Assembly: GCA_903847405.1 (NCBI GenBank)
Contig: CAINDP010000153.1
Coordinates: forward strand, 4,121-68,120
DNA: 64,000 nt
From: an uncultured Myxococcales bacterium
GTDB taxonomy: Bacteria; Myxococcota_A; UBA9042; DTJE01
Reading direction: 5' to 3'
Part shown: positions 29,125-61,496 of the stretch, in pieces
Layout: each line of letters begins with the position of its first letter
How positions within the stretch are numbered: the first letter of the stretch is position 1
Notes under the pieces: model-generated
Databases searched by the model: none
What the model saw: the letters and a program-made list of their open reading frames with translations, nothing else
Told to the model about the DNA's origin: nothing
Made by a program: the position numbers and the translations under genes

Positions 29125-30492
29125 TCAGCCCAGGCCCAGTTTCTGCATCTTGTAGCGGATCGCCCGCTCGCCCAGGCCCAGGTCCCGGGCCGCGGCGCTC
29201 TGGTTCCCCCCGTGGCGCTCCAGCGCCCGGCGGATCAGGTCCCGCTCAAGGTCGGCCACCTGTTCCTCCAGGCCGCCCGTCGCCGGTTCCGAACGCGCGC
29301 CGGCCGGCGCCTGCCCCCCGGCCGGCGGGAAGTCCCCCGCCTCCAGGACCGGCCCGTCCGCCAGCACCAGGGCCCGCTCCACCATGTTTTCCAGTTCCCG
29401 GATGTTCCCCGGAAACGGCTGGCGGGCCAGTGCGTCCAGGGCCTCGTCCGACACGCCGGCGATCCCCGTCGTGGAAAGGTCCGCATGCTTCCCGACGAAG
29501 TGCGCCACCAGGGCGGGGATGTCCCCCGTCCGCTCCCGGAGGGCCGGCATCCGCAACGTCACGACGTTCAGGCGGTAGAACAGGTCCGCCCGGAACTCAC
29601 CCGTCCCGATCCGCGCCTCCAGGTCCCGGTGGGTGGCCGCGATCACCCGGGCGTCGGTTTCCAGCGGCTGGGTTCCCCCGACCCTCTCGAACCGCCCGGT
29701 CTGCAGCACGTTCAACAGTTTCACCTGGACCGACAGGGGGATGTCCCCGACCTCGTCCAGGAACAGGGTCCCGCCCTTGGCCAGTTCCAGACGCCCCTTC
29801 TTCTGCGCCGAGGCGCCCGTGAACGCCCCCTTCTCGTGTCCGAACAGTTCCGACTCGACCAGGGTTTCGCTGAGGACCGCGCAGTTCAGCGTCACGAAGG
29901 GCCCGTCCCGGCGGCTGGACAGGCGGTGCAGCGCCCGGGCCACCACCTCCTTCCCCGTCCCCGACTCGCCCAGGATCAGCACGGACGCACGGCTGGGCGC
30001 GACCTTGACCGCCAGTTCCTTGACCTGGCGCACGGCCGCACTGTCCCCCACCCAGTCCCCGAAGGCATCCGCCACCACGACCGCCTGGCGCAGCGACCGG
30101 TTCTCGCGGGACAGCCCCACCTTTTCCAGGGCCTTGGCCACCAGGGCCTCCAGGCGGGCCAGGTCCACCGGCTTGCCCAGGAAATCGTAGGCCCCGGCCC
30201 GCATGGACCGGACCGCATCCTCGACGGTTCCGTAGGCGGTCACCACGATGGCCTGCAGATCCGGATGGATCCGCCGCAGGTCGCCCAGCAGTTCGATGCC
30301 GTCGGGCCCGCCCAGCCGAAGGTCGGTGATCAGCAGGTCGATCGCCCGGTCCCGGGCCCGCTCCTGCGCCTCCGCTGCCGACCCGGCCTCCTCGACGTCA
30401 TAGCCCGCCTTCCGCAGGAAGCCCGCCAGCATCCGCCGCTGGGCCGCGTCGTCCTCGGCCACCAACAGGGTTCCCTTGTCACGTGCATTCAT
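29125..30492 (-). CDS. sigma-54-dependent response regulator (NtrC family: receiver + AAA+ + Fis-type HTH)
   Basis: Receiver (LLVAEDDAAQRRM...DLLITDLRLGG), Walker A GESGTGKE, GAFTGA motif, ESELFGHEKGAFTGA, C-terminal HTH; internal ATG MNARDKG overlaps HK stop (ATGA). Confidence 0.9.
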   Translation of the reverse strand: MNARDKGTLLVAEDDAAQRRMLAGFLRKAGYDVEEAGSAAEAQERARDRAIDLLITDLRLGGPDGIELLGDLRRIHPDLQAIVVTAYGTVEDAVRSMRAGAYDFLGKPVDLARLEALVAKALEKVGLSRENRSLRQAVVVADAFGDWVGDSAAVRQVKELAVKVAPSRASVLILGESGTGKEVVARALHRLSSRRDGPFVTLNCAVLSETLVESELFGHEKGAFTGASAQKKGRLELAKGGTLFLDEVGDIPLSVQVKLLNVLQTGRFERVGGTQPLETDARVIAATHRDLEARIGTGEFRADLFYRLNVVTLRMPALRERTGDIPALVAHFVGKHADLSTTGIAGVSDEALDALARQPFPGNIRELENMVERALVLADGPVLEAGDFPPAGGQAPAGARSEPATGGLEEQVADLERDLIRRALERHGGNQSAAARDLGLGERAIRYKMQKLGLG

Positions 30493-32297
30493 CGTTGCAT
30501 TCCTTCCGCCTGCCCCTGCGGGCCGCCCTGCGTCCCCGATACGGGCAGCGTCACCGTCGCCCGTGTACCGCTGCCCGGAATCGAGTCCAGGACCAGGGTT
30601 CCCCCGTGCGCCTCGGCCAGACGCCGGGCCAGGGGCAGGCCCAGGCCCGTCCCGTGGGCCTTCGTCGTCACGAAGGGCGCCTGCACGCGCTCCAGCGTCG
30701 CGGCGTCCATCCCCGGGCCGTCGTCGGACACCACCAGCCGGAACGCGCCCCGGTCGCAGTCCGCCGCGACCGTGACACGACCTGCCGGTCCCACCGCATC
30801 CAGGGCGTTCGCGACCAGGTTGGCCACGATCTGCCCGAACCGCTGCCTGTCCACCAGGACCTCGCCCGGGCAGTCGCACCGGACGTCCAGCCCCTTCCCC
30901 TCGGACGCGGCCCTCATCCCCAGCGACGCCAGGGCCTCGTGCACCAGTCCGGCGGCAGGATACGCGCGCCGGTCCAGTTCCAGCGGCTTGCCCAGCTCCA
31001 GGAACTCCGCCACGACCCGCTCGACCCGGTCCGAGGCGTCCGCCGACAGCATCAGCAGTTCGCGGAAGCCCTCCTCGTCAGCAGGGTCCACCCGGACCTC
31101 CCGGGACAGGCGCTGCAGGGCCATGCCGATGGTGTTCAGAGGGTTGCGCACCTCGTGGGCCACGGTGGCCGCCATCAGGCCCAGGGATCGCCAGTGGCGC
31201 CCCTCCTCCTCGCGATGGCGCATCGCGGCCAGGAACTCGGTCCGTCGGCGGGCGCCCCGGCCCAGCACCCAGGCCAGCGCCAGGCTCAACAGCACCGCCG
31301 CTGCCAGCACCCCGAACATGACCGCCTGCCGCAGGGCGATCCGCCGGCCGAAGCTGACCAGTTCCCCGGCATCCAGGGCCGTCCGCACCACCGCGCGGGT
31401 CCCGTCGGCCAGGTCCAGGGGCCCGATCACCTCGTACACCGACTGGCCGTCCCGCTCCAGCATCCGCCCCTGCAACCCGTCCGGCGCCCCGTCCCGGGCC
31501 TGGGCCAGCACCGGATCCTGCAGCCAGGTCGACATCTGCCCCGGCGCGGGCGAGGCCGCCAGGATCCCCCCGGGATCCTGGACCACGACGTATTCCAGGT
31601 CCTGGTCCTTCAGGTCGGCCAGAAGGGGTCCCAGGCCGACCTCCCGGCGCATCCCGTCCAGGTCGTCCCGATCCAGGCACACCACGGTCGCGACGCCGTC
31701 CCCCCGGGCCCAGGCACAGAAGACCCCCAGGTCGCGGGTTCGTTTGTCGTCCACGAAATCGCCCTCGGGCACGGCCAGGACCCCATCCACGAAGGCGACA
31801 CGCCCGGCGACAGGCACCCGATCCAGGCATCCCCGCACCCCGTCCGCATCGCGACGGGCCCAGATCGCCAGGTCCGGAACCCGCGCCTGCAGGGCGACGC
31901 AGTCCTCGCGGTCACCGGGCGGTCCCAGCAACTCCAGCAGCAGGGCCGCGGCTTCCGCCGACATCGAGTACACAAGGCCCGTGGACCACGTGGCTTCCTG
32001 GGCCGCTTCCCGAACCAGGTGGCCTGCGGAACGGGCATGGGATTCGTAGACCTGGCGCAACGCGTCGACCTGCCGGTCCTGCTCCACCCGGGTGGCGATC
32101 ACCAGGACGGCAGACAGGCCCGCCACGACCAGCGGGATCAGTCCGAATCGCAGATGGGGGTGATGCACCGTGTCCGCCCTCAAAATCGAACCATTGTAGC
32201 CTACGCGATATATTTCTTTCTTGCCATACTTGACACCTCCACCTCCGATTTCCACTCTTTGCCCGTCAGGCTCATGGCGGCATGCCGTGCAGCCCAA
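30489..32297 (-). CDS. sensor histidine kinase with large periplasmic sensor domain between two TM helices
   Basis: TM1 LIPLVVAGLSAVLVIAT, approx 270-aa periplasmic region, TM2, H-box HEVRNPLNTIGMALQRL, HATPase (GTGLGLPLARRLAEAHGG); true start probably internal (GTG near aa 44), 5' end uncertain. Confidence 0.75.
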   Translation of the reverse strand: MGCTACRHEPDGQRVEIGGGGVKYGKKEIYRVGYNGSILRADTVHHPHLRFGLIPLVVAGLSAVLVIATRVEQDRQVDALRQVYESHARSAGHLVREAAQEATWSTGLVYSMSAEAAALLLELLGPPGDREDCVALQARVPDLAIWARRDADGVRGCLDRVPVAGRVAFVDGVLAVPEGDFVDDKRTRDLGVFCAWARGDGVATVVCLDRDDLDGMRREVGLGPLLADLKDQDLEYVVVQDPGGILAASPAPGQMSTWLQDPVLAQARDGAPDGLQGRMLERDGQSVYEVIGPLDLADGTRAVVRTALDAGELVSFGRRIALRQAVMFGVLAAAVLLSLALAWVLGRGARRRTEFLAAMRHREEEGRHWRSLGLMAATVAHEVRNPLNTIGMALQRLSREVRVDPADEEGFRELLMLSADASDRVERVVAEFLELGKPLELDRRAYPAAGLVHEALASLGMRAASEGKGLDVRCDCPGEVLVDRQRFGQIVANLVANALDAVGPAGRVTVAADCDRGAFRLVVSDDGPGMDAATLERVQAPFVTTKAHGTGLGLPLARRLAEAHGGTLVLDSIPGSGTRATVTLPVSGTQGGPQGQAEGMQR

Positions 32298-32319
32298 GGG
32301 CTTTCAACAGGAGGTTCCC

Positions 32320-32721
32320 GTGAACAGTTCTTCCCGTGATACCCAGTCCCCGGCTGCAAGCGGCAGTCCCGTCATTGCCCTGACCGACGACACCTTCGAG
32401 GCCGAGGTCCTGCAGTCGACCCTGCCCGTCTTCGTTGACTTCTGGGCCCCCTGGTGCGGCCCCTGCCGCATGGTCGCGCCCATGGTCGAGGAACTGGCCC
32501 GCGAGTACGCGGGGCGCATCAAGTTCACCAAGCTGGACACCGACAAGAACCCGGGCGTGTCGTCCGCCCTGGGCATCCAGTCGATCCCCACGCTGGTCCT
32601 GTTCCAGGGCAACCAGGCGCTGGACTACCGCATCGGCGCGGTCCCGAAGGACGACCTCCGCCGCATGTTCGACGCCGCGCTGGCCAAGGGGGCCGCTGCG
32701 GCGACCGACGACCAGGCGTAG
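32320..32721 (+). CDS. trxA: thioredoxin
   Basis: GTG start preceded by AGGAGG SD; active site WAPWCGPC; thioredoxin fold length. Confidence 0.85.
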   Translation: MNSSSRDTQSPAASGSPVIALTDDTFEAEVLQSTLPVFVDFWAPWCGPCRMVAPMVEELAREYAGRIKFTKLDTDKNPGVSSALGIQSIPTLVLFQGNQALDYRIGAVPKDDLRRMFDAALAKGAAAATDDQA

Positions 32722-32793: not shown

Positions 32794-34122
32794 TCAGGGA
32801 AAGCGGATCGCGAACCGCCGCATCTTCCGCATCAAGGTGGCCTTGTGGATTCCCAGGGCCTGGGCCGTCCGCACGCGGTGTCCGCCATTTTCCGCCAGCG
32901 CGGCACGGATGACCACCGCCTGGGCCTGGTCGAAGGCGTCGGAGGTCGCGGGCCCGGGAGGCAGGTCCGGAAGCGGCCCCCGGGCGATTTCCGGCGGAAG
33001 GCAGCACACGTCGATGTTCGGCCCGCGGCACAGCACGAACGCGTGCTCGATCGCGTGTTCCAGTTCGCGGATGTTCCCGGGAAAGTCGTATCGCAGCAGG
33101 GCGTCCAGCGCGTTCGGCGTCACCCCCCGGATCTCCCGGCCGGTCTGGGCAGCGAACAACTGAATGAAGTGGCGGACCAGCAGGGGGATGTCTTCCTTGC
33201 GGTCCCGCAACGCCGGCAGTTCGATCCGCACGACGTTCAGGCGATAGAACAGGTCGTCCCGGAACCGGCCCTCGGCCATCAACTGCCGCAGGTCCCGGTT
33301 CGTCGCGGTGACGACCCGTGCATCCGCCTTCACCGTTCGCGAGGACCCCAGGGGCTGGTATTCCTTCTCCTGCAGCACCCTCAGCAGTTTCACCTGCAGG
33401 GCCGTCGAGATATCCCCGATTTCGTCCAGGAACAGGGTCCCCCCCTGGGCCGCCGCGAACCGCCCGATCCGATCGTGCCGGGCGTCGGTGAAGGCACCGG
33501 CCTTGTGGCCGAACAGTTCGGATTCCAGCAGCGTGTCCGGCAGGGCGGCGCAGTTCAGGGCAACGAAAGGCCGATCCCGACGAGGGCTGCCGTCGTGGAT
33601 CGCCCGGGCGAACAGTTCCTTGCCCGAACCGCTGGGTCCCTGGATCAGCACCGTGCTGCCGGCCGCTGCGATATCCGGCAGGACGCGCAGGATTTCCTGG
33701 ATCCGGTGGCTCTTGCTGACGATGTCGCCCACCCGGAACCGTTCGCGCAACTGGCGCCGCAACAGTTCCAGTTCGGACAGGTCGCGAAAGGTTTCGACCC
33801 CGCCCACGGCCCGTCCCGAGGCGTCCTTCAACACCGCCGTCGAGATGCTGAGGGGCTTTTCCGTACCATCCCGCGCGCGCATCGTCACCCGAACGTCCAC
33901 GGCCTCACGCCCCGAACCCATCGTCGATCGAAGGGCGCAGCGCCGCGCGCAGGCGTCCGTCCGAAAGACCTCGCTGCACTGCCGCCCGAGGGCCTCGTCG
34001 CGCGTGAAGCCGGTGATGGCGTGGGCGGCCCGGTTCCAGGACGTGATCCGCCACTGGTCATCCACGGTGAAGACGCCGTCGGCGATGGAGTCCAGGATGG
34101 GATCGGTGCGGTCAGTCGGCAT
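32794..34122 (-). CDS. sigma-54-dependent transcriptional activator with N-terminal PAS domain
   Basis: PAS (ILDSIADGVFTVDDQWRITSWNRAAHAITGF), AAA+ Walker A GPSGSGKE, ESELFGHKAGAFTDA, GAFTGA-like, C-terminal Fis HTH; divergent from mrp paralog. Confidence 0.85.
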   Translation of the reverse strand: MPTDRTDPILDSIADGVFTVDDQWRITSWNRAAHAITGFTRDEALGRQCSEVFRTDACARRCALRSTMGSGREAVDVRVTMRARDGTEKPLSISTAVLKDASGRAVGGVETFRDLSELELLRRQLRERFRVGDIVSKSHRIQEILRVLPDIAAAGSTVLIQGPSGSGKELFARAIHDGSPRRDRPFVALNCAALPDTLLESELFGHKAGAFTDARHDRIGRFAAAQGGTLFLDEIGDISTALQVKLLRVLQEKEYQPLGSSRTVKADARVVTATNRDLRQLMAEGRFRDDLFYRLNVVRIELPALRDRKEDIPLLVRHFIQLFAAQTGREIRGVTPNALDALLRYDFPGNIRELEHAIEHAFVLCRGPNIDVCCLPPEIARGPLPDLPPGPATSDAFDQAQAVVIRAALAENGGHRVRTAQALGIHKATLMRKMRRFAIRFP

Positions 34123-34229
34123 CGGAACCTCCGGCCACGGGCATGGTCGCAAAATCGCGACCACGCTTCAAGGATTGCTTTGATGCACGGATGCGAATAA
34201 CTTGCAGCCGCGGATAGCGGAGGCCCCCC

Positions 34230-35168
34230 ATGGGATGCGGTTGCGGCGACGGGCAGGACACAGGCGGGTGCGGCGGACACGAGCACGGACAGACCTTCCA
34301 GCCCGATGACATGGCCCGCGCGGCGATGCGGCGGATCCCCCACAAGATCCTGGTGATGAGCGGCAAGGGAGGCGTCGGCAAGACCACCGTGGCCGTCAAC
34401 CTGGCCTACGCACTGGCGGCCGCCGGCCACAAGGTCGGGATCGTGGACGCGGACCTGCACGGGCCCGACGTCCCGCTGATGACCGGGGTCGAGGGACTGC
34501 GGGCCCAGGCCAGCGACGAGGGGCTGATCCCCATCGACGCGCCGGGCGGCGTCCGCATCCTCTCGGTGTCGTCGTTCCTGGCCTCCCCTGACGCCCCGGT
34601 GATCTGGCGCGGCCCGGCCAAGGCCGGCGTCATCGCCCAGTTCCTGGGCCTGGCCGACTGGAAGGGCACCGACGTCCTGATCGTGGACTGCCCCCCCGGA
34701 ACCGGGGACGAACCCCTGTCCGTGGCCCAGATGATCCCGGATGCCGACGGCGTCGTGATCGTCACGTCGCCCCAGGGCGTGTCGCTGCTGGACAGCCGCA
34801 AGTGCGTGGGCTTCGCGCGCCAGATGGACCTGCCGGTGCTGGGGATCGTCGAGAATTTCTCGGGGTTCGAATGCCCCGGTTGCGGGCGCCGCATCGACCT
34901 GTTCAAGCGGGGCGGAGGCCGTCAGGCGGCGACCGACCTGGGCGTCCGTTTCCTGGGCAGCATCCCGATCACCGAGGCGATGGTCGAAGCGGGCGATTCG
35001 GGTCGGCCCCTGGTGGTTTCGACCCCCGACGATCCGGCGTCCCTGGTACTGACCGCGATGGCACAGGAACTGGTCGCGGACTGGGTGTCCGGCAGCGTCG
35101 GCGCGCCGATCGGCGAAGGGTGTTGCGGCAGTTGCGCGTGCCACGAACCGGTTCCCGGTCAGGACTGA
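34230..35168 (+). CDS. Mrp/ApbC/NBP35 family Fe-S cluster carrier ATPase with Cys/His-rich N- and C-termini
   Basis: Deviant Walker A SGKGGVGKTT, CPxC-type motif CPGCGRR; N-term MGCGCGDGQDTGGCGGHEHG and C-term CCGSCACHEP; SD GGAGG upstream. Confidence 0.85.
   Translation: MGCGCGDGQDTGGCGGHEHGQTFQPDDMARAAMRRIPHKILVMSGKGGVGKTTVAVNLAYALAAAGHKVGIVDADLHGPDVPLMTGVEGLRAQASDEGLIPIDAPGGVRILSVSSFLASPDAPVIWRGPAKAGVIAQFLGLADWKGTDVLIVDCPPGTGDEPLSVAQMIPDADGVVIVTSPQGVSLLDSRKCVGFARQMDLPVLGIVENFSGFECPGCGRRIDLFKRGGGRQAATDLGVRFLGSIPITEAMVEAGDSGRPLVVSTPDDPASLVLTAMAQELVADWVSGSVGAPIGEGCCGSCACHEPVPGQD
34305..35040. repeat. approx 740-bp segment about 90% identical to 46655..47395 (mrp paralog core)
   Basis: Direct nucleotide comparison of both mrp genes. 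Confidence 0.8.
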
Positions 35169-35198: not shown

Positions 35199-36362
35199 TC
35201 AGCCGGGCGCCCCCGACTGCAACCCCGGCACTTCCCGGTACGCGGGACATTCCTCGCCGCTCACCACCTCCGCTGCCTGCCGCAAGGCGTCCAGCGTCTG
35301 GTACCCGACCAGCCGCGCGACCTCCTTCCGGTCCCGATCCAGGTACACGAAGACCGGGATGCCGCCGATACCGAACGACCGCGCCAGAGGCTTGCCTTCA
35401 GGGCTGGTCACGTCCACCTGGCGGATTTCCAGGGGATGCCCGTCGCACTGGTTCCGAAGGACGTTCACGGCCGGCATCATCTGCCGGCAGATCGGACAGT
35501 TGGGGGAGTAGAACTCGTACAGCACCGGCAGCGGGTCCTGGGCTGCGCCGCATTGGATGTCGACAGCGTGTTCGTCCCCACCGCCGCACGTGGCGCCTTG
35601 TGCCGGGTTCGGCGTGGCCGCGGCAGACAAATCCGGGGGCTCCGCCGCCGACGCCGATACCGGCGCCTCGGGTGGCTGGGCCAGCGCGTAGTCCAGCAGC
35701 CCCAGGCGATCGGTGGCCAGAAGGAACCCGACCACCACCAGCAGCAACCCGGTGGACTTTTCGAATACCGGAATGAACCGCCGCACCTTGCGCAGCGCCG
35801 CCAGGGCCGGCCCCGCCACCAGGGCCACCAGGACCAGCGGCACCGCGAACCCCAGCGAGTACAGGGACAGGTAGCCCATGCCCACCAGGGGATCCGAGGT
35901 CTTCAGGGAGGTGTAGGTCAGGACCGCGCCCAGGACGGATCCGATGCAGGGGCTCCAGGCGAAGGCGAAGAACAGCCCCAGCACGAAGGAATTCAGGTGG
36001 TGGAACCGCGTCTTGAACCGGCCCGCATCCAGGCCGCCGCCACCGTCCAGGCCGGGCAGTTTCAGGTAGCCCATGAACCGCAGGCCCAGCAGCAGCACCA
36101 CGAATCCGCCCAACTGCTGGAACAGCACCTTGTGGTCGACCAGCGCCCGCCCCAGGACGGTTGCCGACAGGCCCAGCAACGAGAACACCAGCGTGAACCC
36201 GGCGGCGAAGGCCAGGCTGGACACGAAGCCCCTGAAGCGGCCGCCCCCCTCCCCGCCCCCGCCCGAAAGGATCGACAGATAGATTGGGATCAGGGGCAGG
36301 ACGCACGGGGAAACGAACGTCAGCAGCCCCGCCACGAACACCGCTGCAGCGGACATCACCAT
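35199..36362 (-). CDS. CcdA/DsbD-family thiol:disulfide interchange membrane protein fused to C-terminal thioredoxin-like domain
   Basis: DsbD-beta-like TM core with conserved Cys pairs (SPCVLPLIP; AWSPCIG) and C-terminal CPICR thioredoxin-fold domain. Confidence 0.8.
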   Translation of the reverse strand: MVMSAAAVFVAGLLTFVSPCVLPLIPIYLSILSGGGGEGGGRFRGFVSSLAFAAGFTLVFSLLGLSATVLGRALVDHKVLFQQLGGFVVLLLGLRFMGYLKLPGLDGGGGLDAGRFKTRFHHLNSFVLGLFFAFAWSPCIGSVLGAVLTYTSLKTSDPLVGMGYLSLYSLGFAVPLVLVALVAGPALAALRKVRRFIPVFEKSTGLLLVVVGFLLATDRLGLLDYALAQPPEAPVSASAAEPPDLSAAATPNPAQGATCGGGDEHAVDIQCGAAQDPLPVLYEFYSPNCPICRQMMPAVNVLRNQCDGHPLEIRQVDVTSPEGKPLARSFGIGGIPVFVYLDRDRKEVARLVGYQTLDALRQAAEVVSGEECPAYREVPGLQSGAPG

Positions 36363-36399: not shown

Positions 36400-36612
36400 T
36401 CAGGCTTCGTCCTTCACGGCGCAAGTCCCGGCCCCACAGAGGCGGGACAGGGGACAACTGCCGACCAGGCCCGTGACGATCGGGATGATCCCCAGGGCTC
36501 CCCAGGGCGTCTGGGGACCGACGAACACCAGGCTGATCATGCCCAGGCCAGCCAGGACGCGCACCACGCGCTCGACGTTGTGGACGTTGCGGGGAAGAAG
36601 TTTCCGGAACAT
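36400..36612 (-). CDS. DUF2892 (YgaP-C-terminal-like) small membrane protein
   Basis: 70-aa product MFRKLLPRNVHNVERVVRVLAGLGMISLVFVGPQTPWGALGIIPIVTGLVGSCP matches the small 2-TM proteins usually linked to rhodanese. Confidence 0.5.
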   Translation of the reverse strand: MFRKLLPRNVHNVERVVRVLAGLGMISLVFVGPQTPWGALGIIPIVTGLVGSCPLSRLCGAGTCAVKDEA

Positions 36613-36862
36613 CGGGACCTCCAGGTTGTTGGCCACCTGCGCAGGTTGCAACGGGGCAGGCACGACCCGCGCTTCGGGTCGCACCTCGGCAAGCCTCGCC
36701 GGGACCTGACCTCCAAACATTACCTCATGGATATATTTCGCGCAAGCGATATTTAGAAATTCTTTCCACCTTCCTTCATCGGAAGACCGCCTTGACATCC
36801 GCATCGCTCTCCTTACTTTCCATTCACGACATATGCCGCCCGTGGCATCATGGAGGTGCGGA

Positions 36863-39081: not shown

Positions 39082-39136
39082 GGAATGGACGTCCGGATGG
39101 CGCGACACCCGCCCGGCCGGTTATGATGCCGCCTGC

Positions 39137-39618: not shown

Positions 39619-39669
39619 CGGTGGCCCGGGGGAAGCGGGTTCCCCCGGGCCATCCAGGTCGGCCCCCGC

Positions 39670-40086: not shown

Positions 40087-40143
40087 CACCGGACCTCCTG
40101 GGTTTCAAGCACCAGCCCCCCACGGGCCGGCAAGGAATGTCCA

Positions 40144-51099: not shown

Positions 51100-51113
51100 A
51101 CGCCATCGGGAAA

Positions 51114-52691: not shown

Positions 52692-52734
52692 CCGGCGCGG
52701 TGGGAGGCGGACGACAGCCTCCCGGGAGGACGGC

Positions 52735-54600: not shown

Positions 54601-55011
54601 TCAACCGACCGCCGGATCTTCCTCGGATTCGCCTTCGCACTTCGGGCAGGCCTCCGGCGCCTCGCCCGGAGTCGCGTGGATCCAGACGTCCCGACATCGT
54701 GGGCAATGGTAGTTGCGGCCGTCTGCGTTCGGGTCCAATCCCTCGATCCGCAACGCCTTGCCGTGGACCAGCGCGTCGGCCACCTTCCTGCGGGCGATCT
54801 CGACAACACGGGCGAACGTCTGGCGGGACACACCCATGATCTCGGACGCCTGCTGCTGGTACATCCCCTCCAGGTCCGCCAGGCGGATCGCCTCGAACTC
54901 ATCCAGTTCCAGCACCACTTCGTCGAGGGCCGACATCGGGATTCCGCGAGGCTTGTAGTACGTCGCGACGGGGGCGGCTCCCACGCGTCGGGGACACTTG
55001 GGTCTGGCCAT
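54601..55011 (-). CDS. DUF134 (UPF0251) DNA-binding protein with C-terminal CxxC...CxxC zinc ribbon
   Basis: MARPKCPRRV...YYKPRGIP...EAIRLADLEGMYQQQASEIMGVSRQTFARVVEIARRKVADAL matches DUF134; CPRCRD...CPKCEG ribbon. Confidence 0.7.
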   Translation of the reverse strand: MARPKCPRRVGAAPVATYYKPRGIPMSALDEVVLELDEFEAIRLADLEGMYQQQASEIMGVSRQTFARVVEIARRKVADALVHGKALRIEGLDPNADGRNYHCPRCRDVWIHATPGEAPEACPKCEGESEEDPAVG

Positions 55012-55016
55012 CGTAT

Positions 55017-55508
55017 TCACGCTCCTGGCGGACCGGCATCCGCGTCGCCGGCATTCTCGCCAGTCGCCGATGCGGTGTCCAGTTCGCTCCTGCACTGCCC
55101 TTCCCGATCCACGAAAACTCCCCGTCCCGTCGCCATGATCCGCTGGCCCTGCCGGGCCTCGGAACGCAGGCGATACAGCGGCGGGGCAGACTCCACGATC
55201 CACGCCTGCACCTGCGTCGGAACCTCCAGCGCCACCGGATGCCGGAACCGGACCTGCAGATCGCCCGTCACCGCGGCAATCCCGCGCGCCATCAGGCACT
55301 GCGCCATGGCGGAATCCAGGAGGGTCGCAACCACTCCACCCTGGGCCATTCCCGGGTAGCCCTCGAAGCGTGAATCCAGGTTCGCCCGTCCTGCCACCGT
55401 TCCATCCGGCCGAACGCCGCACAGGAATCCCAGGCCGTCCGCCCGGTCCGGCGAGCAGGCAAAGCAGTGGGGATGCAATGTCTCCCGCTTCCGGACGATG
55501 TTCTCCAA
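55017..55508 (-). CDS. PaaI/hotdog-fold thioesterase family protein
   Basis: LHPHCFACSP...GYPGMAQGGVVATLLDSAMAQC hotdog thioesterase pattern; start tentatively TTG 55506-55508. Confidence 0.5.
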   Translation of the reverse strand: MENIVRKRETLHPHCFACSPDRADGLGFLCGVRPDGTVAGRANLDSRFEGYPGMAQGGVVATLLDSAMAQCLMARGIAAVTGDLQVRFRHPVALEVPTQVQAWIVESAPPLYRLRSEARQGQRIMATGRGVFVDREGQCRSELDTASATGENAGDADAGPPGA

Positions 55509-55643: not shown

Positions 55644-56255
55644 ATGGCCCCGGATCCCATCGACCCGGTCCCGTTCGGTTGCCGCCACTGCGTGACGCGA
55701 GGCAGTTTCGTCGGCGGGAACGCCCGGACTCCCAGGGATTGCCCCACCACCACGCACCCGGAAACGTCGAAAGACGTGTCGGCATATCTGTCCCCGGAGC
55801 GCCAGGCCTTGATGCGGGTGGCGAACGACGCTCCCTTCGCCCCCGACGGCCGCCTGCGGAACCGGGTGGAGGAACTGGTCTTCTTCGCCCGGTCGCAGGG
55901 GATGCGACGCATCGGCGTGGCCTTCTGCGTTTCCCTTCTGAAGGAGGCCCAGGAACTGGGCCGGATCCTGGTCGCCGAGGGACTGGAGGTGGAACTGGTC
56001 TGCTGCCGCGTCGGGGCGGTGGACCATGACGAAATCGGCCTGCCCAAGGCGAACCCCGAAAAGTTCGCTGCCATCTGCAATCCCGTGGCCCAGGCACGCC
56101 TGCTGGACGAACGCGGGGTGGATCTGATCGTCCAGATGGGGCTGTGCATCGGCCACGACTTGATCCTGCAGCAGGAGGCCCGGGCGCCGGTCACGACCCT
56201 GGTGGTCAAGGACCGGGTGCTGGATCACCACACGATCCGGGCGTTGCGCCCATGA
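55644..56255 (+). CDS. DUF1847 family metal-binding protein
   Basis: Cys-containing N-terminus (FGCRHCV...), conserved DUF1847-like core; internal ATG (MAPDPIDP) preferred because GGGCAAATGCCC palindrome overlaps the longer ORF start at 55539. Confidence 0.5.
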   Translation: MAPDPIDPVPFGCRHCVTRGSFVGGNARTPRDCPTTTHPETSKDVSAYLSPERQALMRVANDAPFAPDGRLRNRVEELVFFARSQGMRRIGVAFCVSLLKEAQELGRILVAEGLEVELVCCRVGAVDHDEIGLPKANPEKFAAICNPVAQARLLDERGVDLIVQMGLCIGHDLILQQEARAPVTTLVVKDRVLDHHTIRALRP

Positions 56256-56284
56256 CGAGGCCCCACCCAACGGAGGATGATTCC

Positions 56285-57274
56285 ATGCGATTCCGAATCC
56301 ATCCCGCCTGGTGGCCGGTCCTGGCCCTGGCCAGCCCGGCATTGGTCCCCTGGCTGGCCATTCAGACAGGCCGCTTCGCCACGGGCAGAACTCGCGCGTT
56401 GCAGGTCAACAAGGACCGGGTGTCATCGGCCCTCCCCCTGGCGCTGCCCGTCCTGGACGACCTTCGGCTGACCGTGCTGGTCGATCACGCGCACGAAACG
56501 GGGTTCCTGGGTGACGCAGGCGTCTCGTACGTGATGGCCACTCCGTCCGGCACGACCTTGATGGACGTGGGTTTCGGTCCCGGAACCCCCAGCCTTGCAC
56601 ACAACGCGTCCAGGCTGGGGTTCCAGGCTGCAGGCATCGACAGTGTCGTCATCACGCACCTGCACCTGGATCACATGGGCGGGCTGCGTGCCGCGCGGGC
56701 GCATCGGGTCGAGTGGCCGGAGGGCTTCGTTCCAAGGCCCGGGACCCCCTGCTTCCTGCCGGCTCCGGCGGACGCGCCTGGGCTGGACGCGACGCTGGTC
56801 GAAGGTCCCCGCCTGCTGCCGGGTGGCCTGGCAACCACGGGTCCCCTGGCGCGCATGCTCTGTCTGACGGGGTGGATCGAGGAGCAGGCGCTGGTCGCGA
56901 AGCGGAGGGATGGCGGTCTGGTCGTGGTCACGGGATGCGGTCACCCCACGCTCGAAACCATCCTGGCCATGGTGCGCCGAATGGATCCGGCGAAAGTCCA
57001 CACGGTGGTGGGCGGGCTGCATTTCCCGATCACCGGGTCCCGGATCAAGCGGCTGGGAATCCAGTTCCAGCAGGTCATCGGGACCGGAAAGTGCTGGTGG
57101 GCGGGTGTCACCGACGCGGACCTGACCGCCACGATCGCGACCCTGAACGCCGCCGGCGTGCAACGGCTGCTCCTGTCGGCGCACGACACGTGCGACCACG
57201 CCATCGAACGCCTGCGACGCGAGACACATGCCGAGGTCGAGGTGGTGCAAGCGGGTGCCAGTTATATCCTCTGA
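56285..57274 (+). CDS. MBL-fold metallo-hydrolase
   Basis: Signal-like N-terminus; metallo-beta-lactamase HxHxDH motif ITHLHLDHMGG. Confidence 0.75.
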   Translation: MRFRIHPAWWPVLALASPALVPWLAIQTGRFATGRTRALQVNKDRVSSALPLALPVLDDLRLTVLVDHAHETGFLGDAGVSYVMATPSGTTLMDVGFGPGTPSLAHNASRLGFQAAGIDSVVITHLHLDHMGGLRAARAHRVEWPEGFVPRPGTPCFLPAPADAPGLDATLVEGPRLLPGGLATTGPLARMLCLTGWIEEQALVAKRRDGGLVVVTGCGHPTLETILAMVRRMDPAKVHTVVGGLHFPITGSRIKRLGIQFQQVIGTGKCWWAGVTDADLTATIATLNAAGVQRLLLSAHDTCDHAIERLRRETHAEVEVVQAGASYIL

Positions 57275-57335: not shown

Positions 57336-57348
57336 GGGCAAATGCCAA
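57336..57348. promoter_or_regulatory. palindromic motif GGGCA-AA-TGCCA (instance 2 of 3)
   Basis: TTTTGGGCAAATGCCAATATCC about 200 nt upstream of nifX-like operon start. Confidence 0.35.
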
Positions 57349-57538
57349 TATCCATCCCCGAGACCGGAGCCTGGGCAACGGCGTTACGAGGGCCCGGTCG
57401 ATCGAGGGTTCCGGATAGAGGGAGGCAGACATGCCAGGTCATGATGGAACAGGTCCCCTGGGGCAGGGACCGGGCGCAGGGCGCGGCAGGTGGCGTCACG
57501 GGCAGGCAAGGCCGGCCGTTGAAGATGGAGAAATCCCG

Positions 57539-57958
57539 ATGAGCAATCGAACGATCATCGCGCTCCCGGTCGAGGACGACGCCGGCCTGGAATCCGACGT
57601 CTGCCAGCATTTCGGCCATGCGGCGGGGTTCGCCCTCGTCGAAGTCGATGGTGCGCAGATTGCCTCCTGCCGCGTGGTCAGGAACCCAATGGCGGAAGAC
57701 CACCAACCGGGGATGCTGCCGGGGTTCGTCCATTCCACCGGCGCGAACGTCCTGCTGGCGGGCGGCATGGGCCCGCGGGCCGTTGACCTGCTGCATGGAT
57801 TCGGGATCGACGTGGCCACCGGCGCCCAGGGGCGCGTGCGCGACGTCGTCACCGCGTACCTGGCCGGGAACCTCACCGGCATCACGCCCTGCGACCACAG
57901 CCACGACCATGGCGGCGGATGCGGCGATCACACGCGCCATCACGGAGGTCCGACATGA
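57539..57958 (+). CDS. NifX/NifB-C-terminal-type dinitrogenase FeMo-cofactor-binding family protein (COG1433-like) with His/Cys-rich tail
   Basis: MSNRTIIALPVEDDAGLESDVCQHFGHAAGFALVEV...VLLAGGMGPRAVDLL; tail CDHSHDHGGGCGDH. Confidence 0.7.
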   Translation: MSNRTIIALPVEDDAGLESDVCQHFGHAAGFALVEVDGAQIASCRVVRNPMAEDHQPGMLPGFVHSTGANVLLAGGMGPRAVDLLHGFGIDVATGAQGRVRDVVTAYLAGNLTGITPCDHSHDHGGGCGDHTRHHGGPT

Positions 57959-58299
57959 AGGTGGCCGTTTCGATCGAGGAAGGAAAGGGCATGACCGCCC
58001 CGGTGTGCCAGACCTTTGGCCGTGCCCCGTGGTTCGTCGTGGTCGATGACACGACCGGCGGAATGACCTTCGTGGCCAATACGGCCGCATCAGGGGCCCA
58101 CGGCGCCGGTACAGGCGCCGCGTCCTTGATGGCCCGGCACGGCGTCGACGCGGTCATCTCCGGCCGCTTCGGACCCAACGCCTTCGAAGCCCTCCACCTT
58201 GCCCAGATCCGGATGTTCGTCTGCCTTACCGACCCGACGGCCCAGGAGGCCCTGGAACAGTTCCGTGCAGGCGCGCTGCAGGAAGTCGCTGCAACCTGA
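57955..58299 (+). CDS. NifX/NifB-C-terminal-type family protein (second copy)
   Basis: MKVAVSIEEGKGMTAPVCQTFGRAPWFVVVD...VDAVISGRFGPNAFEAL; ATGA overlap with upstream gene. Confidence 0.7.
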   Translation: MKVAVSIEEGKGMTAPVCQTFGRAPWFVVVDDTTGGMTFVANTAASGAHGAGTGAASLMARHGVDAVISGRFGPNAFEALHLAQIRMFVCLTDPTAQEALEQFRAGALQEVAAT

Positions 58300-58316
58300 C
58301 GGCGTGAAGGAGTCCC

Positions 58317-59165
58317 ATGCGGATCGTGGTCGCCAGCGGAAAGGGAGGCACCGGGAAGACGCTGGTTTCGACGTCGCTGGCACTGCACTGGGCCAGGCAG
58401 GGCCAGGAATCCTGCTACATCGATGCCGACGTCGAGGAGCCGAACGGCCACCTGTTCCTGCAACCCGCAATTGATGCAACGCGCCGCTTCACCATGCCGG
58501 TGCCCCGCCTGGAGGGGACGTGCGAGGCGTGCGGGCGCTGCCAGGAACTCTGCGCCTTCCACGCGATCCTGGCGATCAAGGGACGCGTACTGGTCTTCCC
58601 CGAACTGTGCCATTCCTGCGGCGCATGCGTCCTGGCCTGCCTTCCGGGGGTGCTGCACCTGGCACCCCGCGAGATCGGCACGATCCGCGAAGGCCGCGTC
58701 GGAAGCCTGCGCTTCATCGACGGCACCCTGGACGTGGGCGAGGCCCGCGCCGCGCGCCTGACGGAAGGCGTGGCCTCCACGCCTTGCGGGGGACGGGTCA
58801 TCGTGGATGCACCGCCGGGGACCTCCTGTCCCGCAGTGGCGACACTCCGCGGCGCGGACATCGCCGTACTGGTCACCGAACCGACGCCGTTCGGCTTGCA
58901 TGACCTGGGCCTTGCGATCCGCATGTGCCGTTCCCTGGGAGTCCCCCCCGTCGTCGTGGTCAACCGGTCCGACCTCGGAGGCGACGTGGAAGCCGCCCTG
59001 GCCGAGTTCGGCGCCCCGGTGGTCGGGCGGATTCCCTTCGACCCCAGGATTGCCGTGGCGACCGCGAAAGGGGAAATCGCGATCGATGTCGTCCCGCGAT
59101 TCGCGGAAACCGTGGCCGGGATTGCCCTGGCCGTGGAGCGCGCCGCCCTGGAGGCCCGCTCATGA
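58317..59165 (+). CDS. MinD/ParA-superfamily P-loop ATPase with inserted double 4Fe-4S ferredoxin domain (COG1149-like)
   Basis: ASGKGGTGKT deviant Walker A; ferredoxin cysteines CEACGRCQELCAFHAI and CHSCGACVLACLPGV. Confidence 0.8.
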   Translation: MRIVVASGKGGTGKTLVSTSLALHWARQGQESCYIDADVEEPNGHLFLQPAIDATRRFTMPVPRLEGTCEACGRCQELCAFHAILAIKGRVLVFPELCHSCGACVLACLPGVLHLAPREIGTIREGRVGSLRFIDGTLDVGEARAARLTEGVASTPCGGRVIVDAPPGTSCPAVATLRGADIAVLVTEPTPFGLHDLGLAIRMCRSLGVPPVVVVNRSDLGGDVEAALAEFGAPVVGRIPFDPRIAVATAKGEIAIDVVPRFAETVAGIALAVERAALEARS

Positions 59166-60073
59166 AACAGGTCGTCGTACTGAGTGGCAAGGGGGGCACG
59201 GGAAAGACGTCGCTGACGGCGGCACTGGTTCGCCTGGCCGGCCGATGCGTGGCGGTGGATGCCGACGTCGATGCGGCGAACCTTGCCCTGCTGATGCCCG
59301 GCCAGGACGACCCGTGGAGGACGTTCACGGCGGGGCGCCGGGCCCGGATCGACCCGGACCTTTGTGTCGGGTGCATGCGCTGCTCCGAGGAATGTCCGTT
59401 CAAGGCCATTCGCATGGGAGCGGCCTGGATTCCGGTTGTCGACCCGTTGGCCTGCGAGGGCTGTGGCATCTGCAAGCAGTGGTGCACACCGGGTGCCATC
59501 CGGTTCGAGGGCCATGAAGCCGGGGTCTGGACCGTGCGCAGGACCGTCTGGGGCCCGTTGGTGCACGCGGCCCTCCATGTCGGCGAGGACAACTCGGGGA
59601 AACTGGTGGCCCAGGTCCGGAAGGAAGGCGCCCGCCTGGGGTCCGCCGAGAACATCGACCTCGTTCTCGTCGACGGCCCCCCCGGAATCGGCTGCCCCGT
59701 CCATGCGGCGATCGGCGGCGCGGACCTGGTCGTGGCGATCACGGAACCCGGCGTTGCGGCGGCCCACGACCTGGAACGCCTGCTGGACCTGGCGCGCTGG
59801 TTCCACGTACCGGCGGCCATCGTGCTGAACAAGGCGGACCTGCATCCAGCGGCCTCTGCGGACCTGCGGTTCATGGCGGCCGCCCGGGGCGTCCCGGTCC
59901 TGGTGGATCTGCCGTTCCTGCCCGCGGTTCCACGCGCCCTGGCCCGGGGACGGTGTCTTCTGGAGGTGGAGGGCCTGCAGGAACCCCTGGACGCCTGCTG
60001 GGCCGGCATCCAGCGAATGCTGGCCGGGGCGCCGGCCCCAGCGGAAGAGTGCAGACCCGCGGAGCCGACATGA
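59162..60073 (+). CDS. MinD/ParA-superfamily P-loop ATPase with inserted 4Fe-4S ferredoxin domain (second copy)
   Basis: LSGKGGTGKT; CVGCMRCSEECPFKAI and CEGCGICKQWCTPGAI; ATGA overlap with upstream gene. Confidence 0.8.
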   Translation: MKQVVVLSGKGGTGKTSLTAALVRLAGRCVAVDADVDAANLALLMPGQDDPWRTFTAGRRARIDPDLCVGCMRCSEECPFKAIRMGAAWIPVVDPLACEGCGICKQWCTPGAIRFEGHEAGVWTVRRTVWGPLVHAALHVGEDNSGKLVAQVRKEGARLGSAENIDLVLVDGPPGIGCPVHAAIGGADLVVAITEPGVAAAHDLERLLDLARWFHVPAAIVLNKADLHPAASADLRFMAAARGVPVLVDLPFLPAVPRALARGRCLLEVEGLQEPLDACWAGIQRMLAGAPAPAEECRPAEPT

Positions 60074-60250: not shown

Positions 60251-60727
60251 ATGAGTGACAAGGCGTTCCAGGATTTCTACCCGGACGATGTGGCCTGGTG
60301 CTACGGCTGCGGGCGCCTGAACCCGCCCGGCCTGCACGTGCGCAGTTTCTGGGACGGGGACGAAGCCGTATGCCGGTACACGCCGGGTCCGCAGCATATC
60401 GCGATCCCCGGGTACGTGTATGGCGGGCTGATCGCATCGCTGATCGACTGCCACGGCACCGGGACTGCCGCCGCCGCCGCGTACCGTGCCCAGGGGCGGC
60501 CCATGGACAGCGAGCCGCCGCTGCGCTTCGTGACGGCTTCGCTGCATGTCGACTACCTGCGCCCGACGCCCATGGGAGTGACGCTGGAAATCCGGGCACG
60601 GGTCAAGGAGATCAAGGGCCGCAAGGTGGTCGTCGAGGAGCGGCTCCTGGCCGATGGCGAGGTCTGCGCCCGGGGCGAGGTCGTCGCCGTCCAGGCTCCG
60701 AAGGAACTCTTCGCAGCGAAAGCGTGA
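60251..60727 (+). CDS. hotdog-fold thioesterase-like protein
   Basis: GYVYGGLIASLIDCHGTGTAAAAAY...ASLHVDYLRPTPMG pattern of PaaI/4HBT-like proteins; start MSDKAF preferred (ORF from 60227). Confidence 0.55.
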   Translation: MSDKAFQDFYPDDVAWCYGCGRLNPPGLHVRSFWDGDEAVCRYTPGPQHIAIPGYVYGGLIASLIDCHGTGTAAAAAYRAQGRPMDSEPPLRFVTASLHVDYLRPTPMGVTLEIRARVKEIKGRKVVVEERLLADGEVCARGEVVAVQAPKELFAAKA

Positions 60728-60748
60728 GGACCTGAACCCGGAGCATCG

Positions 60749-61291
60749 TCAGGGCACCGGATCCTGCAGCAGCGCCAGGGCCTCGTCCGGGATTGCCTTC
60801 TCGAACAGGCGTCCTCCGATCCGGAAGGTTGGAGTGACCCGGATGCCCAGTTCCCGGGCCTCCGTGGTATCCCGTGCCAGGATCTCGTGCACGCCGGGGT
60901 CCTCCATGCAGCAATGGAACGCATCCTCGTCCAGGTCCAGCGCCCGGGCCACTGCAACCGCACACCGGCGTGCCGCGCATACCGCATCGGCGTTCAGCAG
61001 AAGGTAGTCGTGGGCCTCCCAGAAGCGGCCTTGCCTGGCGGCGCAGACGGAGACGCGCGCGAGTTCGCATGCCCGCGCATGGAACGGCTGCATCGCATCG
61101 GGATTGCAGGACGGGTCCATGGGGAGGTTCCTGTACACGACCTTGATCCGCCCCGGGAACAGGGACAGCAGGCGGCGCACCTTGAGGTGTGCGCGGCGAC
61201 AGTCGGGGCACCGATAGTCCGTGAACTCCTGGACTTCGAGGACGGTGGTCGGGGAGCCCATCCAGGGCTGGCCGTCGGTGGTCATTCCCAC
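60749..61291 (-). CDS. DsbA-like thioredoxin-fold protein lacking a recognisable signal peptide
   Basis: CPDC active site in EFTDYRCPDCRRAH; DsbA-like C-terminal helices; N-terminus abrupt (MGMTTDGQPW). Confidence 0.55.
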   Translation of the reverse strand: MGMTTDGQPWMGSPTTVLEVQEFTDYRCPDCRRAHLKVRRLLSLFPGRIKVVYRNLPMDPSCNPDAMQPFHARACELARVSVCAARQGRFWEAHDYLLLNADAVCAARRCAVAVARALDLDEDAFHCCMEDPGVHEILARDTTEARELGIRVTPTFRIGGRLFEKAIPDEALALLQDPVP

Positions 61292-61496
61292 GGGATGGTT
61301 CTTCCTGTCTGCGGCCCGCGATGCCGGTCCCTACCTTCTGTCCGTGGCTGCGGCCGGTTTCCTATACGTGGCGCTGGCCGACCTGGTGCCGTCGCTGCGG
61401 GGCCGGATGACATGGAAGGGCGCGCTTCTCGACCTGTTGTTGATGGCACTCGGCCTTGCCACCGCGTGGCTGGCCACCCACAGCCACGGGGAGTAG
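61221..61496 (+). pseudogene. possible remnant of a ZIP (ZupT-like) metal transporter C-terminus
   Basis: 91-aa ORF with two TM helices resembling ZIP C-terminal TMs (LLSVAAAGFLYVALADLVPSL); too short for intact gene; overlaps dsbA-like 5' end on opposite strand. Confidence 0.25.

Follow-up and report, generated by a model that had tools for sequence, protein, structure and literature searches.

The second half of the 64-kb stretch of DNA analysed here (the window; contig CAINDP010000153.1 of an uncultured Myxococcales bacterium) carries homologues of the Orp genes of Desulfovibrio, a regulator resembling OrpR and an operon for an octahaem tetrathionate reductase (OTR). In our view the segment from ~28.5 kb to beyond 62.3 kb is probably a native neighbourhood in which co-travelling operons have been shuffled in place around these Orp and OTR cores, and not a recent import. 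The two modules are probably under one redox sensor, and the host is probably a facultatively anaerobic Myxococcota bacterium. A preliminary description had read the region as a horizontally assembled island, a claim that is largely explained away by the data below. Its functional theme of anaerobe-type redox, sulfur and Fe-S genes linked to low redox potential is borne out by the Orp homologues, the OrpR-like regulator and the OTR operon, whereas the limits it had drawn at 30.0 and 61.3 kb are arbitrary: a linked sigma-54 unit begins at ~28.07 kb, and lgt and g58/g59 (61.5-64 kb) are part of the same recurring gene set in relatives, so that the theme extends from ~28.5 kb to beyond 62.3 kb.

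Because the GC content of the window is 69%, genes were called with a codon-likelihood model, which yielded 59 genes (g01-g59; the start of g20 and the limits of g46, g48 and g49 were revised relative to the first calls), and the proteins were annotated by sequence searches of Pfam, NCBIfam and PDB. Redox, sulfur and Fe-S genes are concentrated beyond chance in the second half (19 of 35 genes versus 1 of 20 in the first half, Fisher p=3e-4), also when transcription units are counted instead of genes (11/18 versus 1/11, p=0.008). The halves are nevertheless not cleanly different, because the first, "carbohydrate" half holds g09 (11202-12203), a multihaem cytochrome c with eight haem-binding motifs that adjoins a TetR/SDR pair. 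Most of the inventory in the preliminary description proved real: a split YeeE/YedE sulfur transporter (g35 and g34), OTR (g37), two multihaem cytochromes (octahaem g37 and the heptahaem c/cytochrome b fusion g36), two rhodaneses (one fused to g34, the other g43), two Mrp ATPases (g26, g39), three NifX-like domains (the C-terminus of g39, g50 and g51), two MinD-ferredoxin proteins (g52, g53), a B12-binding radical SAM protein (g30) and three types of regulator, namely ArsR (g38), DUF134 (g46) and two bacterial enhancer-binding proteins (bEBPs; g22 and g25). The thioredoxin-fold proteins, put at seven or more, number five by Pfam (g24, g27, g29, g45 and g55, with six domains), and of the HicAB module only the toxin HicA (g32) is recognisable, its presumed partner g31 having no detectable homology. 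The FGE-sulfatase domain of g41 is no sign of sulfur metabolism.

The OTR operon and its control region comprise the following features.

45929-46255, minus strand: g38, arsR
44457-45932, minus strand: g37, OTR octahaem cytochrome
42196-44460, minus strand: g36, heptahaem cytochrome c fused to a PhsC/HydC-type cytochrome b
41682-42203, minus strand: g35, PmpA-like C-terminal half of YeeE
40342-41670, minus strand: g34, PmpB-like N-terminal half of YeeE fused to a rhodanese
46355-46370, minus strand: putative sigma-54 promoter TGGCACGTCTCCTGCT, with one mismatch
46387-46403, minus strand: inverted repeat GATAT-N4-ATATC, which is also a site resembling those of integration host factor (IHF)
46468-46485, minus strand: OrpR-type palindrome GGTCGCAGAACTGCAACC, 107 bp upstream of the -24 element

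The identity of g37 is secure, as it exceeds the TIGR04315 cutoff (540.7 versus 375 bits), matches PDB entry 1SP3 at E=1e-134, contains eight CXXCH motifs and an N-terminal hydrophobic export signal, and aligns its GKKNLLNNFC with the GKKNSINNFC (Lys56, Cys64) of 1SP3. Its partner g36 has seven CXXCH motifs in the N-terminal part and a Ni_hydr_CYTB/PhsC-like domain at the C-terminus, and finds no relative in PDB. The two transporter genes divide the Sulf_transp profile between them (g34 covers positions 11-200, the N half, and g35 positions 177-309, the C half), in the manner of a split PmpAB-type transporter, and each half keeps one conserved Cys in a G-C-x-x-G-type motif (C108 in GGFCPG and C134 in RGCTSG), as PmpA and PmpB do (PMC11582611). 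This four-gene core was conserved in seven loci of relatives (L005, L007-L011 and L036; labels of this kind denote loci on fragmentary contigs from metagenome-assembled genomes (MAGs) or metagenomes, relatives among the genomes having been found with g36 as query), while L012 has g36-g34 with no OTR within the locus. In the literature we found no description of a module of OTR, cytochrome b fusion and split YeeE::rhodanese.

The Orp-type genes and the units associated with them are spread over a wider interval.

32794-34122, minus strand: g25, OrpR-like activator with PAS, sigma-54 AAA+ and HTH_8 domains
34145-34162: OrpR-type palindrome GGTCGCAAAATCGCGACC, located 23 nt upstream of g25 in the control region between this gene and the divergent g26
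34190 (g26 copy): promoter motif GATGCNAATAACTT, common to g26 and g39
34230-35168, plus strand: g26, Mrp/NBP35 ATPase without an ORP domain, a ~90% nucleotide paralogue of the ATPase domain of g39
46580-47938, plus strand: g39, MrpORP-like, with an Mrp/NBP35 ATPase and a NifX/ORP domain
55017-55508, minus strand: g47, 4HBT thioesterase-like
54601-55011, minus strand: g46, DUF134 DNA-binding protein of 136 residues
55542-55551, minus strand: palindrome GGGCAAATGCCC in the spacer of the g47-g46 promoter TGCACA-16-CATAAT
55644-56255, plus strand: g48, DUF1847
56285-57274, plus strand: g49, metallo-beta-lactamase (MBL)-fold protein
57337-60073, plus strand: Orp structural operon g50-g53, with palindrome GGGCAAATGCC (57337-57346) inside TTGACT-17-CAATAT
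57431-57958, plus strand: g50, DUF5320-like/NifX
57955-58299, plus strand: g51, NifX
58317-59165 and 59162-60073, plus strand: g52 and g53, MinD-ferredoxin ATPases
61517-62335, minus strand: g57, lgt, with palindrome GGGCATATGCCC at 62372-62381
62451-64000, minus strand: g58, Cys-rich membrane protein, and g59, ABC ATPase (cut at the window end), a neighbourhood that recurs in relatives

Like Orp3/4 and Orp5/8, g52 and g53 combine CbiA/ParA with Fer4 and carry two CxxCxxCxxxC motifs each, and g50 and g51 have Nitro_FeMo-Co domains; g39 joins ParA/NUBPL, with a CPGC motif, to Nitro_FeMo-Co and aligns with NF041136 over residues 2-364 of 365. Homologues of g39 head orp operons in L029, L030, L032 and L033. 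In g25, the PAS domain reads C49-x-E51-x6-C58-x3-C62, with the three Cys, the acidic residue and the exact spacing of C52/E54/C61/C65 in OrpR of Desulfovibrio vulgaris Hildenborough (DvH; PMC8359166), and is accompanied by a sigma-54 AAA+ domain and a helix-turn-helix; the AAA+ loop has the unusual sequence GAFTDA, as in DVU2106 (PMC4641369). The regulator of L018 had been considered as a further OrpR-like protein and was set aside, as its translation is of the L008 type and lacks the Cys triad.

The putative target of g25 is the palindrome GGTYGCA-N4-YGCRACC, which resembles the DvH box GGGCGYRTTTTGCGCCC and occurs exactly twice in the window, each time in a control region (4 strand matches versus 0.84 expected). 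The copy before g25 sits where autoregulation, as in DvH OrpR, would be expected to place it, and both L005 and L036 have an OrpR-type palindrome at the same position before their orpR-like genes. The second copy belongs to the OTR control region, whose elements are the same in L005, with the same 107-bp spacing, and keep the same layout in L036 (degenerate box, AT-rich element and a perfect TGGCACG-N4-TTGC). From the boxes, their spacing and their conservation in these two relatives we infer that transcription of the OTR operon is turned on by the OrpR-like sensor when the redox potential is low. A scan for the sigma-54 consensus with up to two mismatches returned 22 sites versus 23 expected, thus no overall enrichment, and only three intergenic sites with one mismatch count as meaningful; in the window none was found upstream of g39 or g50-g53. 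The motif ATATTTC, which had been considered as a common operator (5 sites versus 0.34 expected), was rejected since it matches -10-like hexamers, for example in TTGACG-17-CATATT before g40.

The structural orp genes share a different signal. The palindrome GGGCAWATGCC(C) precedes g50-g53, the g47-DUF134 operon and lgt (3 exact sites versus ~0.1-0.25 expected), and in the first two cases it lies within the spacer of a sigma-70-like promoter. The exact GGGCAWATGCC was absent from all loci of relatives that we examined, and only a shorter form, GCATATGC with CATAAT, is kept in L036, between a g50-type NifX operon and the divergent DUF134 gene. These three sites, together with the L036 arrangement, indicate that DUF134 is likely a repressor acting at the GGGCAWATGCCC palindrome.

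Other orp loci differ in their control elements. In three loci from Myxococcales MAGs, L029 (8955-9260), L030 (9185-9560) and L032 (5907-6170), sigma-54 promoters precede both the orp operon and a VKOR-DsbA gene divergent from it, and the GTTCCA/TGGAAC repeats in the interval form an enhancer unlike the GGTCGCA box; the Cys triad is nevertheless present in the OrpR-like proteins of L029 and L030. Near DUF1847 homologues we observed a leader-like element, GAGCG(A)GAACC ... GCTCTCACC, ~40-150 nt upstream of the gene in L016-L019 and L021-L025, longer in L021-L023 and not in the window. Possible identities are a cis-regulatory RNA not recognised so far or an operator; Rfam gave no match for the window or for the six of these loci that were scanned.

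A broader version of this reading holds that the OrpR of the lineage drives the OTR/quinol dehydrogenase/YeeE::rhodanese operon within one conserved super-cluster that also comprises DUF134 and the Orp structural genes. L036 (61-79% identity) has just such a compact arrangement, with OrpR-like, ArsR, OTR, cytochrome b fusion, PmpA and PmpB::rhodanese genes followed by DUF134, which is divergent from DUF5320/NifX, NifX and MinD-Fer4 genes. As a general statement about the lineage we regard this only as a tentative and somewhat doubtful possibility.

The origin of the region was addressed through its composition and its relatives. Were it an imported genomic island, with modules for sulfur-compound respiration or detoxification inserted into a carbohydrate and housekeeping backbone, the functional contrast of the halves would be readily understood, and third-position GC (GC3) is indeed 4 points lower in the second half (0.909 versus 0.870; small but significant, p=2e-4). 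Yet the lowest-GC3 zone, 54.6-62.3 kb, takes in the housekeeping gene lgt, overall GC is 0.697 versus 0.694, and the Karlin codon bias between the halves is only slightly raised (B=0.099 versus 0.069+-0.012 for random gene splits). Their tetranucleotide profiles correlate at r=0.992, at a distance that does not exceed a permutation null (p=0.10). Among blocks of 8 kb, the one at 0-8 kb deviates most, and there is no compositional boundary near 30 kb. The comparison of codon usage, GC3 and tetranucleotides that the preliminary description had suggested thus shows near-uniformity and does not support an island. Nor does the window contain tRNA genes, any integrase or transposase domain in its called genes, or direct repeats other than two internal gene duplications, a right-hand end possibly falling outside it; a PHROG scan of its unannotated proteins gave no match except for the HicA toxin.

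The company that these operons keep elsewhere also bears on their origin. At 43-95% identity, the component operons are present in further Myxococcota MAGs, where they adjoin each other and, in L031, lgt. Proteins identical to those of the window are found in the same order on several ENA metagenome contigs. The closest genome, a Myxococcales MAG (L005; ~74-95% protein identity), has the order OrpR-like, ArsR, OTR, cytochrome b fusion, PmpA-like and PmpB-like::rhodanese, then a 523-residue unannotated protein, OsmC, histidine kinase, response regulator, g21 and g19; hence the 32.2-40.1 kb segment of the window is missing at that site and g25 is located elsewhere. In L031 all of g41-g45 is present (43-60% identity), and MrpORP and lgt come after it. 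Canonical orp operons of the form (NifX), MrpORP, NifX and two MinD-Fer4 genes are present in L029, L030, L032 and L033, with an OrpR-like gene on the same contig in L029, L030 and L033 and none seen on L032, and with VKOR-DsbA fusions nearby in L029, L032 and L033. L033 additionally has DUF1847, MBL and rhodanese genes, and the DUF1847-MBL pair recurs in the closest relative too. Contigs with a 90%-identical DUF134 combine 4HBT-DUF134, MrpORP, DUF1847-MBL and g58/ABC genes in yet another order, and DUF1847 homologues elsewhere (a metagenome scan with a DUF1847 query returned short contigs for the most part) adjoin CcdA, YgaP-like and thioredoxin genes, or ArsR and OTR genes. In the closest relative, the family-less g58 and the ABC ATPase g59 are found together with genes for FtsX, NosL and a NifX-like protein, and in L020 with DUF1847; the thematic neighbourhood probably continues beyond the window end. 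Taken together, these gene orders indicate that the operons co-travel within the lineage while their order is fluid. Against the full synteny and uniformity that the preliminary description had named as the converse of an island, the region is thus uniform and not syntenic, its order differing even from that of the closest relative. Among the fragmentary MAG contigs, no relative with the flanks of the window joined was seen.

The fluid order has visible sources within the window. One concerns an NtrC-type two-component pair and the small secreted proteins next to it.

30489-32168, minus strand: g23, histidine kinase
29125-30492, minus strand: g22, NtrC-type response regulator/bEBP with GAFTGA
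28978-28993, minus strand: putative sigma-54 promoter TGGCACGGCGCTCGCA, 56 nt upstream of g21, conserved in L005
28515-28922, minus strand: g21, small secreted protein with DxDGDGxCD-type repeats
28069-28455 (revised start), minus strand: g20, small secreted protein with DxDGDGxCD-type repeats
26978-28072: g19, outer membrane protein-like, following g21/g20
39670-40089, minus strand: g33, paralogue of g21 at 80% amino acid identity, with a sigma-54 promoter (40145-40160) identical to that of g21

The genes g20 and g21 lie downstream of the sigma-54 promoter and gave no Pfam or PHROG match, and the order of histidine kinase, response regulator, g21 and g19 is the same in L005. A direct duplication of ~700 bp (28460-29180 versus 39619-40400, 88% nucleotide identity) spans an upstream repeat, GTCGACCGGGACGTCGAG..CTTCGACGAAAACGTCG, the sigma-54 promoter, g21/g33 and a GC-rich hairpin, so that the duplicated locus carries its own enhancer, promoter and terminator; the g23/g22 pair adjoins two identical sigma-54 promoters with common upstream repeats. 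Both g21 and g33 have two FVDADGDGxCD motifs and Gly/Lys/Gln-rich spacers, with no family match. A second duplication of ~0.8 kb, including the promoter motif noted above, links g26 (34170-35100) to the ATPase domain of g39 (46520-47500) at ~90% nucleotide identity. The offsets of the two pairs, 12,350 bp for g26/g39 and 11,155 bp for g21/g33, are 1.2 kb apart, about the size difference of the unrelated genes between the copies, a possible trace of an old tandem duplication of ~11 kb whose middle was replaced.

Other marks of rearrangement are found near the right-hand end and in the middle of the region.

60251-60727, plus strand: g54, 4HBT thioesterase
60749-61291, minus strand: g55, DsbA-like, with a CPDC motif and no signal peptide
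61245-61496, plus strand: g56, C-terminal ZIP fragment of 83 residues, overlapping g55 back to back
37621-39618, plus strand: g30, B12-binding radical SAM protein, g31, presumed antitoxin of 74 residues, and g32, HicA

As the counterparts of g55 and g56 in relatives are intact VKOR-DsbA fusions of 422-434 residues and an intact Zip of 249 residues, the two genes look like remnants of a single deletion and are probably 5'-truncated VKOR-DsbA and ZIP genes. The two internal duplications, the truncated genes and the scrambled order argue for reshuffling in place, and the rearrangements thus look internal as judged from the sequence. The exception is g30 with HicA, probably a translocated piece unrelated to the theme and the only such piece: relatives of g30 at 74-86% identity sit in paralogue arrays. 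One such array, in L034 (5415-14170; the scaffold, of 287 kb, belongs to the same sample series), has six B12-binding/SPASM radical SAM paralogues, at 74% to g30, flanked by DDE and rve transposases. Downstream of g30, g32 has matches to HicA_toxin (3.7e-8) and to a toxin family of PHROG, and g31 (4-bp overlap with g32) has no HicB, PDB or PHROG match.

Seen as a whole, the points in favour of an imported island (besides the contrast of the halves, the HicA gene, the segment missing at that site in the closest relative, the transposases around g30 relatives and the patchy occurrence of the OTR module across phyla) stand against a uniform composition, no mobility genes, the joint occurrence of the operons in Myxococcota and duplications and deletions that account for the rearrangements, and we consider such an island unlikely. 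Several observations weigh against a native neighbourhood with Orp and OTR cores as well. The differences in GC3 and codon usage (p~0.014 for the latter) are slight yet significant, the gene order is unlike even that of the closest relative with a toxin gene inside the variable segment, and the case for native origin draws on composition within the window and on fragmentary MAG contigs. Contigs labelled Eisenbacteria and very AT-rich ones also carry the four-gene OTR module, and a contig labelled Chloroflexi carries g36-g34, so that an older horizontal spread of modules is likely, the one in the window being fully ameliorated. On the functional side, the MrpORP match of g39 (388 bits) falls under the NCBIfam equivalog cutoff of 450, the orp genes of the window have no sigma-54 promoter, unlike those of DvH, L029, L030 and L032, and the link between DUF134 and its palindrome draws on three window sites and one in L036. 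Other Myxococcota OTR operons are paired with a different bEBP or Rrf2, which makes the predicted OrpR control of OTR lineage-specific. Finally, the physiological substrate of OTR is uncertain: OTR reduces nitrite and hydroxylamine too (cited in PMC11237559), and support for tetrathionate reductase activity of OTR homologues in vivo is indirect (PMC8528874).

It is also conceivable that the operons are unrelated neighbours which share neither regulation nor function, and that the theme arises simply because an anaerobe-leaning genome is rich in redox genes. The region comprises at least a dozen transcription units, in both orientations, some genes (those for the radical SAM, HicA and FGE-domain proteins and the thioesterases) have no link to sulfur, and the sigma-70-like AT-rich motifs are ordinary -10 elements. 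Against this, the same families neighbour each other on independent contigs in differing orders, regulatory palindromes are common to several units and the enrichment holds per transcription unit, which makes mere adjacency improbable.

A native neighbourhood with Orp and OTR cores would suggest the following working model. At low redox potential, the OrpR-like g25, predicted to hold a [4Fe-4S] cluster, would bind GGTYGCA-N4-YGCRACC 107 bp upstream of TGGCAC-N5-CTGC and activate sigma-54 RNA polymerase, the GATAT-N4-ATATC repeat possibly serving IHF bending or ArsR feedback. Menaquinol would donate electrons to the cytochrome b/heptahaem protein g36, and g36 would hand them on to OTR (g37) in the periplasm for the reduction of tetrathionate (or nitrite/hydroxylamine). 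A sulfur product, of which thiosulfate is the simplest candidate, would be imported via the PmpAB-like g35 and g34 and handled by the fused rhodanese (PMC11582611, PMC11073785). Sigma-70-like promoters with the GGGCAWATGCCC palindrome would serve lgt and the operons of DUF134 and the Orp structural genes, under repression by DUF134. Among the genes listed next, those for thiol-disulfide proteins (CcdA-Trx, Trx, Trx-Grx and the rhodanese, MauE/DoxX and DsbA of the g41-g45 operon) might provide the periplasm with the reductant and oxidant that disulfide chemistry and the maturation of cytochrome c require.

32287-32721, plus strand: g24, thioredoxin (PF00085, 6e-30)
35199-36341, minus strand: g27, CcdA/DsbD_TM-thioredoxin fusion
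36400-36636, minus strand: g28, YgaP-like transmembrane protein
36863-37480, plus strand: g29, thioredoxin-glutaredoxin fusion
49390-54562, plus strand: g41, FGE-sulfatase-domain protein, g42, TPR protein, g43, membrane-anchored rhodanese, g44, MauE/DoxX protein, and g45, secreted DsbA-like protein
48077-49246, plus strand: g40, sulfide:quinone oxidoreductase (SQR)-like FAD flavoprotein

CcdA, YgaP and Trx genes recur beside DUF1847 homologues, and all five genes g41-g45 are in the same order in L031. The flavoprotein g40, which the preliminary description had called SQR, is only SQR-like: its best PDB match is Aquifex SQR (1.3e-28), and its C119 and C337 align with C124 and C347 of that enzyme, but an Arg occupies the position of the essential Cys156, and against the NCBIfam SQR models it reaches 58 bits at best (cutoff 525), below every cutoff. 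Possibly g40 represents a separate subfamily whose chemistry is different. The ArsR protein g38 has a single Cys (C92), hence no two-Cys persulfide switch, and a BigR match of 54.6 bits versus a cutoff of 155, for which reasons it was not taken for BigR/SqrR; a persulfide dioxygenase identity of g49 was likewise dropped, no such match being found. The proposal of sulfide detoxification via SQR is weak because g40 lacks a catalytic Cys and g38 has a single Cys. A sulfide/persulfide detoxification locus of the cst/BigR/SqrR type, with SQR, rhodaneses, an MBL persulfide dioxygenase, YeeE permeases and an ArsR sensor, is very doubtful, for although an SQR-like protein, two rhodaneses, an MBL-fold protein, YeeE halves and a sub-threshold BigR match are all there, none of the three diagnostic identities holds, the genes lie in separate transcription units and a persulfide dioxygenase requires O2 whereas the regulator logic is anaerobic.

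Elsewhere in the window, g15 (19946-20278) is a bacterial RRM_1 RNA-binding protein, g18 (25096-26868) a secreted protein of 590 residues with Cys-rich C-x-DG-x-C-T-x-D-x-C repeats and no Pfam match, and g03 (2964-3479) has EGF-like repeats.

Work on the Orp complex has been confined to Desulfovibrio, and cell division is the only process with which the complex has been connected to date. In the window its regulator seems to be coupled to a respiratory octahaem cytochrome operon, and Orp genes lie amid sulfur-import and thiol-disulfide genes in three related Myxococcota genomes. If this linkage is functional, the complex would join periplasmic sulfur-oxyanion reduction and sulfur import, one possible role being the building or repair of a metal-sulfur cofactor with DUF134 as dedicated repressor. 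The putative OrpR box, sigma-54 promoter, OTR module and DUF134 operator provide a concrete lead, and the four-gene module conserved around OTR would account for both the connection of OTR to the quinone pool and the fate of its product. For genome scanning, the case cautions that a functional contrast within a window does not make an island if composition is uniform and the operons co-travel in relatives.

Several parts of the region correspond to known systems. Relative to OTR of Shewanella oneidensis (1SP3), g37 is a full-length homologue with the eight CXXCH motifs, the Lys56/Cys64 region and the export signal; unlike the Shewanella context, it belongs to a module with a haem c/cytochrome b partner and a split YeeE::rhodanese behind a putative sigma-54 promoter. 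By architecture alone, g36 recalls the CbcL-type quinol oxidoreductases in the inner membrane of Geobacter, a multihaem c fused to a HydC/FdnI-type dihaem cytochrome b, although g36 is paired with OTR and not with extracellular electron transfer. The g23/g22 pair with g21/g33 likewise recalls ZraSR-ZraP-type envelope modules, in which a sigma-54 two-component system drives a small periplasmic protein; g22 has a sub-threshold ZraR match (393 bits), and g21/g33 have DxDGDGxCD repeats and no detectable homology to ZraP. The layout of g35/g34 is that of PmpAB-type split YeeE in its half-size proteins and Cys motifs, except that g34 has extra helices and a fused rhodanese in place of a separate TusA-like YeeD/TsuB partner (PMC11073785).

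The closest parallel is the Orp system of DvH (OrpR DVU2106, with DVU2103-2105 and DVU2107-2109; literature on Orp, OrpR, IHF and MrpORP in PMC8359166, PMC3897727 and PMC6345978). Shared with it are the domains of g25, its C-x-D/E-x6-C-x3-C motif and GAFTDA loop, a palindromic box of near-identical type that likewise lies directly upstream of the regulator gene, the two-domain architecture of MrpORP, two MinD-like ATPases with ferredoxin inserts and small NifX/ORP proteins. In the DvH system, ORP binds a Mo-Cu-S cluster and the Orp proteins form a complex. In DvH these genes form two divergent operons around orpR, whereas in the window they are dispersed over 27 kb: in place of two sigma-54 orp operons flanking orpR with a palindrome each, the boxes lie between g25 and g26 and between the OTR operon and g39, and the structural genes follow sigma-70-like promoters with the GGGCAWATGCCC palindrome and adjacent DUF134. 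Besides the Myxococcota host, further differences are an additional Mrp paralogue that lacks the ORP domain and an OrpR-type box with a sigma-54 promoter before the OTR operon; by ChIP-seq, no such operon belongs to the regulon of OrpR in DvH (PMC8359166). Orp/OrpR/MrpORP, OTR, the PmpAB-type YeeE halves and the CcdA/Trx/DsbA proteins are thus known parts; the differences lie in the conserved OTR module, the dispersal of the orp genes, their apparent shift to DUF134/sigma-70 control and the OrpR box and sigma-54 promoter before the OTR operon.

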